Positions 7,201-12,066 are shown, numbered from the stretch's first letter. The stretch is 64,000 nucleotides of DNA from Marsupella aquatica (GCA_973895155.1 OZ316891.1:24675899-24739898); one strand, 5' to 3'. Numbers and translations are program-made. Notes: generated from the letters alone by a model not told the origin.

Positions 7201-7442
7201 ATCTTGTGCTACTTTATGACAGTAGGTATAGTAGGTTTCCAGGAAAGCTTTACACTCGCTGGTTAGGACCCTTTAGAGTAACCATGATGTTCCCCAATGG
7301 CTCCGTGCAATTGGCCAACATTACGGGAGAGGTATATCCAGTTCGCATCCATTATGACCGCCTCAAGAAATACTATATGGACGAAGATGAAGTTGTTCGC
7401 AAGGACGCTTCACAATTAAGTGGGGAGCTATGTGATGCCTAG
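4176..7442 (+). CDS. pol: Pol (RT-RNase H-integrase), in the -1 frame relative to gag
   Basis: RT motifs [37 protein letters not shown]...TDH...NADFFSR; integrase HHCC, WGID, SDRG, ERAN, GPF; stop codon lies inside the 3' LTR. Confidence 0.95.
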   Translation: MGSSSRDSGFSAGVVAEPTGSTTPSIIGKELNTKGSAYKPITRAEQIEALLEAERAQRPNSQEQEVDEMDRHDLEPRQEGEPTTNSKLNRPVRGQSMDTKEGTDSASPAEIPVYGGMRLERLEAELDPNLKKQINMIQARQYRKLDLGEGRELNLGRNLAPELEKEISDLLIEFQDVFAWSHQDLKGVDPTLGEHRIDLMLGAKSFRQPIRRMNPKYSLLVKTEIDKLVEAGFITPVLHSDWVSPIVIVPKKAGPDGKPKIRVCQDYRKLNEATLKDHFPLPFTDMVLDMVASHELYSFMDGYSGYNQIRIRQEDQIKTAFITEWGIYVFNRMPFGLCNAPAMFQRLMVNIFHDYLRKFMEIFIDDFAVFGKASKHAKYLRKTFMRCREVGLKLHPDKCFFAVTEGVLLGHKVSRKGIEIDKGKLAVWLDIMQPKNIKDVRSFLGCIGYYRRFIKDFAKLALPLTNMLKAGADFEPTPERVTAVVELKQMLVEAPVMIAPDWNKDFHVFVDVSGFCIGSVLSQLDEKGRDHPIYFASRQLADAKRNYSTTKREALGVIYSCKKFRHYLLGYKVIFHTDHESLKYLVNKPDLTGRVARWILLLQEFDYELRIKPGKLHANADFFSRITGKPAMDCIDDRFPDEELFVVEIAGTWYPEILQFLSTSRLQPGLSREQAAVFVRKVRQYQCIKGILHKHGINGTIQRCLEKREVKRVLRAMHGEEAGGHFAPVTTSKKILNAGYWWPTLHKDVYQFIKQCDPCQRAGGPRASTRHPLHPILPLAPFEKWGIDYIEPLKPLTHPRRNKYIILATDYATKWVEARPTMKDDAITTARFMYEQIFTRYGAPLELVSDRGTHFLNDIISRLNEQYLVKHRPTTPYHPKANGLTERANGIIGKILNKTVAQNKLDWDDKLFAAVFAYDLAYKSTTGHTPFFLTFGQEALVPMQLEIPTFQVTIEERASAEESLKEREYRLEALEEARMISAERVEYRQNIMKQQYDKRLKVVSIHTGDLVLLYDSRYSRFPGKLYTRWLGPFRVTMMFPNGSVQLANITGEVYPVRIHYDRLKKYYMDEDEVVRKDASQLSGELCDA
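4200..4259 (+). promoter_or_regulatory. Candidate -1 programmed ribosomal frameshift signal
   Basis: G_GAT_TTT (4200-4206) in gag phase; 5-nt spacer; perfect stem GGCGTTGTGG (4212-4221) / CCACAACGCC (4237-4246); loop GCCGA can pair with TCGGC (4255-4259). Confidence 0.7.
7395..7430 (+). promoter_or_regulatory. Polypurine-tract region, conserved with family B
   Basis: GTTCGCAAGGACGCTTCACAATTAAGTGGGGAGCTA directly before the LTR start TGTGA. Confidence 0.7.
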
Positions 7443-10400: not shown

Positions 10401-12066
10401 CGCCAAGATGAACCAGATGGAGTCTGTCATCATTGCAGAGCTCGACAAGGAGCTAAGAGCAACCCAGGAGGAGAGGGCTACCTTGAAGAAGGAATTGGAG
10501 GAAGCCCACAGGGAGCAGGAGGAGGCCAAAAACGAGCTGGAGGGGGCACGTAAGGACCTGGATGAAACCCAAGAGGAGTTGGAGGAAATCACGAGGAAGA
10601 TGGAGAACCTACAGCGGCGGGCCGACAACCAAACAGAGCGGCTGAAGAAACAAGCCGCAGTATTTAAATGCTTAGCTGCAGCAGGTCCATCTCCCGTTGG
10701 GACAAACCAGTTACCAGGGGTGGTAATTGCCGAAGGACAAGCCGCGTCAACTGCACCAGTGCCGGAAGTAAGTGGGAAGGGGAAGGGACCAGCTGCCGAG
10801 CCACCAACGAAGAAGAAGCGGAAACCTCCAGGGTCAAGGAGTAATACGACTTCACAGGCCGTGGTGATCAAGGAGGTAGACCCAGCACCGACCCCAGACA
10901 GGGTCACGGCTAAGGATCCAACTACCCTAGGGGAAGGGGAGGCCGAAGCCGTGGGAGTGGCTGAGGCCGAAGCCGTGGGTATTGCCGAGGCCGGTGTCGA
11001 GGCTGAAGCCGAAGGTGGACCCAGTCAGGCCGATGGAGAGTTGACTCGGTCAAGGGCAGGTAATCTGTCAGTAGGCGGGCCAACGGCAGTGGTTGAGGAG
11101 GAAGTGTTGGGGGCGTCCATTGAGGATCCACCACCGGTGTCGTGACGGTGCAAGGGCGTCGTTCCTTTTAGGGAGGGCGGACGTGGAGGGAGGAGGCGTG
11201 AGTGGGCAGGGCGGGCGCGGATCTCCACGTTTAGGATTAGGATCAGAACCAGGAGCGGCCCTGACACTTAGCTTAGTGGGATTGGGGTTCCACTGGTAGG
11301 AGCAACACTTGTGCTCCTGCCTTGCTGTACATAGGTAGATTCGGGCAAGTAGATTACTGTCAGGTAGATTAGGCTTACGATGCAAAGAATGGCGGATCCA
11401 CTACCAGGATAAGTACCTGGGCAGCGGGGAGCTCAGGGCCTCTTCTTTAGCAAGTTTTTAGTTTGCACCAGCCGGGCTGGGATCAAGTAGTACGAGAAGC
11501 TCTCGGTTAGTCATACAGTGACCCTTGTGTATATTCATGTTTCCTCATGCCTAAGAGCTGAATAGAGTTGGCCTCACGGCTTAGTTCGCAGAACTTGTGT
11601 ATGAGATGTACTGTTTGTATGGCAAGTGCATGGTATGACTCAGTCAGAATGAGTCATTTTGCTATTTGTGTGTCGCATTAACTTGTGTGAAGAGTGCCCA
11701 CATCAACAGAAGGAAGGAAAGTAAGCAGGGGAGTGATAGTTGGATGTGTCGAGCTGAGAGAGGTCTTAGCGGCTTAACCAAGCCTATTGGGGATCATTCC
11801 GGCGGCGGAATCCAAACATACCTAACAAGACGGAGGGGAAGACAGGGGAAGACAAGGGAAGGCCTATATTAGGCCGGCTACGTATCTCATGACCTGATGA
11901 AGGATCTGTCCAGTATATGTGTGTAAAATGTTAATAGTAGTAGTAGAAGGTTAGCAGCGTCCCATGCCGCTAAGCCGCGGAAACGGCCTCGCCAAGCACG
12001 AAACCTGCGGGAATCGGCTTGAGCTGGGGGGTTTCTTGGGTTTAGGGAGCCATGGGACGCACCACA
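7431..12066 (+). repeat. Family A 3' LTR, 4636 bp
   Basis: TGTGATGCC...GCACCACA; same termini as the solo LTR at 18046-22705 that has a clean TSD. Confidence 0.95.
7546..11145 (+). pseudogene. LTR-encoded accessory ORF (~1199 aa consensus), interrupted by three in-frame stops
   Basis: ORFs 7507-7929, 7930-8880, 8890-10050 and 10057-11145 share one frame; the stops (TGA 7927, TAG 8878, TAG 10048) are CGA/CAG in other copies; long C-terminal coiled coil. Confidence 0.85.

Follow-up and report, generated by a model that had tools for sequence, protein, structure and literature searches.

Organization of element A and of its LTR gene

The DNA analyzed here is a 64,000-nt window of the Marsupella aquatica genome (GCA_973895155.1 OZ316891.1:24675899-24739898, one strand), in which a Ty3/gypsy retrotransposon, element A, carries a long accessory gene inside its long terminal repeats (LTRs). 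Self-comparison of the window and inspection of the flanks gave a complete 3' LTR and the last part of the 5' LTR (Table 1), which differ by 6 mismatches over 1182 aligned bases and flank an internal region of 6.2 kb that is nearly all gag-pol. A preliminary description of this DNA had set the LTR limits by the polypurine tract (PPT), the PBS (primer binding site), and a solo LTR; these limits are confirmed by the TG...CA ends and by the target site duplication (TSD) TGAAC of the solo LTR. Its claim that the gene lies wholly inside the LTR is also supported, with the open reading frame (ORF) located beyond the PPT and within 7431-12066. An assembly artefact or a tandem duplication is ruled out by the TSDs, by the presence of two families, and by the PPT and PBS. 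Contigs of four sequencing runs span the element, and in two of these runs the summed depth, which is not a measure of copy number, is higher for the LTR than for the internal part.

A single sense frame with three internal stops extends from 7546 to 11145, so that the ~1200-aa frame described previously as filling about 78% of the LTR is real, but the gene itself is shorter. Relative to subfamily A2, codons 1-86 of this frame show 14, 18, and 12 differences at codon positions 1, 2, and 3, with 4 synonymous versus 28 non-synonymous codons and frameshifting indels, while the corresponding numbers for codons 87-270 are 18, 12, and 46. A start at 7546 is thus rejected, as the first 86 codons lack a third-position excess and contain frameshifting indels. 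The gene starts of families B and C, as well as those of the Logan and Calypogeia homologs, line up with the Met at 7804. Because of this alignment and of the non-coding character of codons 1-86, the gene likely starts at 7804, encoding a predicted protein of ~1113 aa and occupying 72% of the LTR.

A homologous sense gene is found in all three families of the window, with identities of 26% between A and B (E 2e-19) and 23% between A and C. The complete element B has 4.0-kb LTRs, the same PBS as element A, and a similar PPT; its gene is present in both LTRs, the 3' copy having one different stop and a 14-base deletion. The core domain is uninterrupted by stops at 44493-45149. The PBS common to A and B may fit tRNA-Asn; Athila elements have a PBS for tRNA-Asp, Asn, or Ala. 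The elements are nested in one another, with at least six LTR copies of the family in 64 kb and LTR pairs 0.5-0.75% apart.

As stated in the preliminary description, the stops differ among copies. The coding part of the A-family copies contains 12 stops, which fall on 11 codon positions; two copies coincide at just one of these positions, and most of the stops are single transitions of the methyl-cytosine-decay type; the terminal stop is common to all 4 A-family copies that reach the end of the gene. The three family-B stops are not the same ones in both LTRs of the element and thus arose after insertion; with its LTR genes broken at different places, the inserted element probably carried an open gene. 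There are also homologs of 600-900 aa free of stops. That solo LTRs keep the gene is supported by the copy at 18046-22705, although retention does not amount to function, since copies carry stops and one has lost ~1.1 kb.

Table 1. Features of the window. L002 is a related metagenome locus.
Feature	Position	Strand	Remarks
3' LTR of element A	7431..12066	+	4636 bp; TG start right after the purine tract, CA end
5' LTR of element A	1..1206	+	Only the 3' 1.2 kb in the window; contains the end of the gene
PBS	1211..1229	+	After the 5' LTR end; common to element B
gag-protease frame, element A	1273..4269	+	Pfam Retrotrans_gag and zf-CCHC; protease read from the sequence
pol frame, element A	4176..7442	+	Reverse transcriptase, RNase H, and integrase (RT-RH-INT), no extra RNase H; crosses the PPT, stop 10-12 bases inside the LTR
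PPT cassette	7394..7430	+	Homologous to the cassette positioned after the accessory gene in L002
TATA-like box	7525..7530	+	LTR +95; also present in subfamily A2; putative promoter for the LTR gene
LTR-resident accessory gene	7804..11145	+	Probably 1113 aa, 72% of the LTR; stops at 7927, 8878, and 10048 in this copy
N-terminal helical domain	7804..8133	+	Also in families B and C and in Calypogeia homologs; no clear match among solved structures
Core domain	8353..8955	+	Remote link to Transposase_32; VANC21-like fold in a model of the family-B homolog; dN/dS 0.11
Long predicted coiled coil	9880..10665	+	Approximate limits; from the sequence and weak coiled-coil Pfam matches
Non-coding LTR end	11146..12066	+	921 bp, about the size of the entire 992-bp L002 LTR; 14-bp motif at 11797 in common with family B
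Solo LTR, family A	18046..22705	-	TSD TGAAC; entire gene retained, 2 stops
Subfamily A2 LTR	28902..31851, 56036..56955	+	84% identical; split by a CACTA insertion
Element B, complete	33051..47156	+	LTRs 33051-37059 and 43162-47156; TSD ACCAT; 2003-aa gag-pol frame 37183-43194
LTR gene of family B	33517..36159	+	880 aa, in the 5' LTR, 2 stops; TATA box at LTR +358
Family-B-like LTR B2, decayed	13319..23550	-	Pieces 13319-15881, 17857-18045, and 22706-23550; host of the solo A LTR
Element A3	56956..60640	-	PPT and 3' LTR with ~1.1 kb internal deletion, and pol end
Family C start	60642..62992	+	TG start; homologous gene from 61193; presumed LTR; far end outside the window
Family-A LTR A4, start	62993..64000	+	Inserted in C

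The LTR gene is under purifying selection

Pairwise comparisons between window copies were used to estimate the ratio of non-synonymous to synonymous substitution rates (dN/dS), a measure also named in the preliminary description. Between the subfamilies A1 and A2, dN/dS is 0.21 (95% confidence interval 0.17-0.27) over 898 codons, versus 0.83, 1.18, and 1.02 for three non-coding LTR controls. The constraint is stronger in the core domain, with values of 0.11 (0.06-0.18) for A1 versus A2 and 0.10 (0.05-0.16) for B versus B2. Even between A1 and the solo LTR, which are 94% alike, dN/dS is 0.23-0.30 in the first four regions. The LTR gene is clearly under purifying selection.

The elements are Athila-like

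The window polyproteins display the Ty3/gypsy order GAG-PROT-RT-RH-INT. Among named pol relatives, the nearest come from two liverworts, Calypogeia fissa at 69-70% and Riccia sorocarpa at 54-60%, against ~37-51% for angiosperm elements. In an RT-RH tree of 95 rows, built with a quick method and excluding rows that cover fewer than 330 residues, A and B fall together with Calypogeia (SH-aLRT 100) and outside the clade of angiosperm elements. Pfam gives no match for an extra RNase H or a chromodomain in the window proteins, where the RH-to-integrase spacing is 125-126 aa, and the TSDs are 5 bp long both for the solo A LTR (TGAAC) and for element B (ACCAT). In the accessible part of the lineage table published by Neumann et al. 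(PMC6317226, supplement 3), Phygy and Selgy have a 4-bp TSD and no extra ORF, and Tat has an extra RNase H. Tat (TatI-III, Ogre, Retand) is therefore ruled out, as the 2003-aa polyprotein has no second RNase H domain, and Phygy and Selgy are ruled out by the 5-bp TSDs, while Athila fits. Set against the lineages by these table features, the elements are Athila-like Ty3/gypsy elements of a liverwort type.

Shared with Athila, a non-chromovirus OTA lineage of Ty3/gypsy whose 3' accessory ORF belongs to Transposase_32 or ATHILA ORF-1 (PF03078), are the GAG-PROT-RT-RH-INT order lacking extra RNase H and chromodomain, the 5-bp TSD, and an accessory ORF with a remote link to the Transposase_32 group, in sense to pol. 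However, the window gene lies beyond the PPT, in LTRs of 4.0-4.6 kb, with an internal region of almost only gag-pol; its protein is longer, with an additional N-terminal domain, and the RT belongs to a separate bryophyte-type clade. Athila has an extra ORF between pol and the 3' LTR, a position that the gene takes in two relatives, L002 and L016, described below, and not in the window elements.

In element A, the gag-protease and pol frames share 94 bases (4176-4269) in the -1 frame, and element B has a single frame. The overlap could reflect programmed frameshifting or damage to this copy; there is no indel at 4176-4269 among those listed for the contigs of the sequencing runs.

Homologs and predicted structure of the protein

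A full HMMER search with a profile of the core domain revealed 84 relatives, which are found in this way only, as word-based homolog searches with the B domain and with the N-terminal alignment returned nothing. For 20 of them the records were consulted: those with a name come from Calypogeia and Riccia, and the others are unnamed 'hypothetical' records. PF20167 (Transposase_32) is matched by 6 of the 84 with 17-32 bits (best E 1.6e-7), all below the curated cutoff of 45 bits, and Pfam assigned the window domains themselves to no family, including Transposase_32. These matches weakly suggest a remote link of the core domain to Transposase_32 and not membership. Transposase_32 is reported to occur in an extra ORF of a sunflower Athila and to be related to ATHILA ORF1, according to the available text of PMC11728184. 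The ESM Atlas gave matches that serve as leads only, at 0.80-0.83 (ATHILA in 17% of members, Transposase_32, DUF1985) and up to 0.89 for unnamed ones; a sequence search of the PDB gave nothing. In two homologs, P0177 and P0191, the domain is joined to a partial DDE_Tnp_4 (Harbinger-type); these may be gene-model fusions or may place the domain in a third class of transposable elements (TEs).

The AlphaFold model of the family-B core domain, based on 76 sequences, displays high confidence, with a pLDDT value (predicted local distance difference test) of 94 and a predicted TM-score of 0.89. Its comparison with solved structures, also proposed in the preliminary description, points to VANC21, the anti-silencing protein of the Mutator-like transposon VANDAL21 of Arabidopsis. 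Foldseek retrieved the VANC21-DNA complex 9LNJ (prob 0.99, TMq 0.54, E 0.015), the next match having a prob of 0.02. Among 48,161 chains, VIA-align gave a Z of 8.0 for 9LNK, with 200 residues aligned and an rmsd (root-mean-square deviation) of 4.2, the next Z being 2.4; a second comparison gave a Z of 7.9. This model-based match is of moderate strength, rises far over the background, and extends across the entire domain. A viral structure library gave nothing clear.

The N-terminal domain, modelled from 6 sequences (pLDDT 88.6), is a predicted helical bundle, and its structure search returned only generic helical-bundle rows with Z <= 5.3. No transmembrane helix was detected, the maximal hydropathy over 19 residues being 0.98 and 1.13, and the window proteins contain motifs resembling nuclear localization signals (NLS).

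The gene likely crossed the PPT once

An integrase scan of metagenome contigs gave 80 loci, 8 of them with a match to the domain profile at E <= 0.01 and one weaker (L026); most have no domain match, and a first metagenome scan with the core domain had found no locus. The domain matches of L024, L054, L078, and L026 are too weak to use, L001 and L005 end before their layout is readable, and an internal ORF of L004 looks domain-like by eye with no profile match. Comparison of the locus and window domains with hhalign gave a prob of 85.7 (E 5.5e-6).

L002 has an LTR of 992 bp and carries the homologous gene (E 3e-10) downstream of pol and ahead of the PPT. The homologous domain of L016 (E 2e-10) is also located before the PPT, fused to the integrase, with an LTR of 542 bp; at 259-4713 of this locus, integrase, accessory domain, and coiled coil form one long frame. 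By contrast to this internal layout, the PPT cassette directly follows pol and precedes the gene in L003, L006, L007, L015, and, in part, L008. The LTR start of L003 is confirmed by the inverted terminus before its PBS, and the implied LTRs exceed 3.6 kb in L007 and 2.8 kb in L006, their far ends lying off the contigs. The PBS of L002 and L003 is presumably of the Athila-type tRNA-Asp.

Since the PPT cassette of the window matches the cassette that follows the gene in L002, the gene and the PPT have swapped order. Recruitment of a central G-tract as a new PPT is ruled out by this same match to the true post-gene cassette. A G-tract resembling a second, internal PPT is found just after the pol stop in L001, L002, L004, and L005, which are elements of the internal layout or relatives of such elements.

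In an integrase tree of 18 rows, including the 10 of the 80 loci that are closest or domain-bearing, all seven integrases of the after-PPT type share one branch (support 83/84), to which the internal-gene forms do not belong. As the after-PPT integrases fall in one clade, a single move of the gene across the PPT into the LTR is the simplest reading of these sequences, likely and moderately supported. The 0.9 kb that follow the stop in A and B have the size of the L002 LTR, suggesting that U3 was extended by addition of the gene. This terminal part, which includes a U/G-rich stretch of the plant polyadenylation (polyA)-region type, is likely the ancestral LTR with its promoter and polyA signals. 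The relatives, in which the gene stands before or behind one and the same PPT cassette, would thus document the growth of an LTR from 1 kb to more than 4 kb by uptake of an internal gene. The idea of an orphan gene is not supported, as these homologs before or after the cassette identify an Athila-type accessory gene in a new place.

Comparison with known systems

Genes in retroviral LTRs include MMTV sag and HIV nef, the latter overlapping U3, which encode proteins of ~200-320 aa in short LTRs. The window gene resembles them as an accessory gene located partly or wholly in the LTR, but the proteins are unrelated and the window genes, of 880-1113 aa, belong to plant retrotransposons. Additional ORFs of plant elements are placed in the internal region by a review, in its accessible text (PMC7264820). 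The rice elements Retrosat2, FRetro3, and RIRE3 are described, in the available part of the source, as having LTRs longer than 3 kb and an extra ORF (ORF0), which is however upstream of gag-pol and separate from the LTR (PMC3485330). A literature search whose coverage left out most subscription papers, and in which sources were partly accessible, found no report of a gene inside the LTRs of a plant retrotransposon. The novelty is therefore that of a known accessory-gene class in a new place, together with a testable functional lead. The function of Athila-type 'env-like' ORFs is a long-standing question, and a high-confidence model matching a solved complex of an anti-silencing protein with DNA makes it directly testable. 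Moreover, solo-LTR formation, the usual route of removal by the host, would leave the largest accessory gene whole.

Possible function of the LTR gene

The accessible text of PMC5735166 reports binding of VANC21 to a short motif located in non-coding portions of its transposon, with hypomethylation as the result. The likeness to the window protein comprises the predicted core fold over ~200 residues, the status of accessory TE gene, and the coiled coil, as well as fast-evolving low-complexity parts; VANC and Athila-domain proteins are both predicted to oligomerize via coiled coils (PMC13547354, available part). The window gene differs in that it lies in a Ty3/gypsy LTR and not in a VANDAL DNA transposon, has 8-11% identity with no match at the sequence level, and shows no dense tandem target arrays in the window LTRs. 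The word ATTAGG, picked by eye, occurs 13 times versus 1.4 expected in five non-coding LTR stretches and is absent from the two genes tested, making it a candidate target of the protein.

From these elements, a mechanism can be proposed in which a VANC-like protein, predicted to be nuclear and DNA-binding, would relieve the silencing of its own family in trans. The gene would lengthen U3, having a promoter of its own close to the LTR start and using a polyA signal in the terminal 0.9 kb, so that 5', 3', and solo LTRs could each be a self-contained expression unit. The protein would oligomerize through its coiled coil, bind short motifs in the non-coding LTR ends, and lower DNA methylation. We give a trans-acting, VANC-like anti-silencing role an even chance. 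More tentatively, and with the balance tilting against it, the full scenario would be that a clade of bryophyte retrotransposons transferred an anti-silencing gene of VANC type into its LTR, a full element having two copies and a solo LTR being a complete cassette (promoter, gene, and target motifs) that de-silences the family in trans. If an LTR-borne anti-silencer of VANC type is confirmed, the VANC fold would be an ancient TE weapon of class I and class II elements and not a capture of MAIN in dicots, and the Athila 'env-like' ORFs would be anti-silencers. Among the trans-acting roles guessed in the preliminary description, anti-silencing gains from the VANC21 fold, while movement loses, given the NLS-like motifs and the lack of a transmembrane helix.

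Several observations weigh against this explanation as a whole. The C-terminal tail is near neutral (dN/dS 0.74-0.90), and every window copy covering most of the gene length carries stops. The LTR genes have 6 stops for 216 intact at-risk codons versus 0 for 292 in gag-pol (Fisher P 0.006), an excess that fits a trans-complementable gene, faster mutation of the LTR, or early decay. For the structure, a Z of 8.0 is, according to the tool, a level that a common arrangement can produce, the Foldseek E is above 0.001, identity is 8-11%, and the rmsd is 4-5. MAIN, which acts in TE silencing on the host side, is reported to have this fold as well (PMC13547354, accessible part), so that the fold is no guide to the direction of the effect. 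ATTAGG was chosen post hoc, is shared across families, and is infrequent in related loci, with 2 occurrences in 5 stretches; dense tandem arrays of motifs, which characterize VANC targets, are nearly missing, with one 15-bp repeat of 2.7 copies at 11333 in the non-coding end of the LTR. Finally, the support of the after-PPT clade is not starred.

A role in the replication cycle, with the protein tethering the integration complex to chromatin or acting in nuclear import, is unlikely. The in-frame fusion of the homologous domain to the integrase in L016, the NLS-like motifs, and the nesting of the elements in the window are compatible with such a role, which has been proposed for plant additional ORFs in the available text of PMC7264820. 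However, the gene is a separate frame in most relatives, and its only clear solved match is a DNA-bound anti-silencing protein.

A second alternative, fairly unlikely in our view, concerns position: the TATA box near the LTR start would be the sole promoter, placing the gene in a giant R or U5 through which the genomic RNA would read. The clearest TATA boxes do lie upstream of the gene, at LTR +95 in A and +358 in B, and are retained in A2 and B2, and within the terminal 0.9 kb a TATA-like word, a weak one, occurs in A only. From general retroelement biology, though, this arrangement needs a strong-stop DNA longer than 3.5 kb and read-through of the polyA signal; the terminal 0.9 kb also have about the size of a whole ancestral LTR, and the gene appears to have arrived from the PPT side.

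The fold common to VANC and MAIN, described in the accessible part of PMC13547354 for the plant mobile domain (PMD) proteins MAIN and MAIL1, could also point to a MAIN-like regulator of chromatin or RNA that tunes or limits its own family through copy-number control or RNA export. The Atlas match to DUF1985 at 0.80 is only a lead in this direction. PMD is found in extra ORFs of 57% of Ogre elements. Yet Pfam detects no PMD in the window proteins or the 84 homologs, and the family is young, with closely similar LTR pairs and numerous LTR copies, which makes self-limitation distinctly unlikely. That the gene is a relic, once useful and now decaying while passively carried by the LTR, would account for the stop excess over gag-pol of the same elements and for the lack of a long intact copy in the window; it is very improbable in view of the low dN/dS between A1 and the closely similar solo LTR, of stops that are nearly all private and, in B, post-insertional, and of the stop-free homologs. 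An env-like movement or fusion protein, suggested by the ancestral position between pol and the PPT where 'env-like' ORFs are located (PMC7264820, accessible text), is barely credible for a protein with no transmembrane helix whose nearest fold is that of a DNA-binding protein.

Other features of the window

A CACTA transposon (31851-56035) with CACTAGTAC termini and a 3-bp TSD splits the A2 LTR and hosts element B. It contains a transposase (52070-55339) and a SET-domain frame (50938-51897, Pfam E 1e-7).

The non-coding ends of the A and B LTRs have as their best shared block a 36-bp stretch that includes a 14-bp self-complementary motif (11797-11810 and 46973-46986), retained in six copies. 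An Rfam scan gave no match for this motif or elsewhere in the window, leaving an LTR ribozyme unsupported. In element B, ~12 bases (37060-37071) separate the LTR end from the PBS, which is longer than the spacing of 0-5 used by Neumann et al. in the available part of that work. Strongly C-skewed, non-coding, repeat-like stretches at 12067-13300 and 15882-17800 flank and interrupt the LTRs, and an RT fragment of a separate element lies at 24360-25061 on the minus strand.

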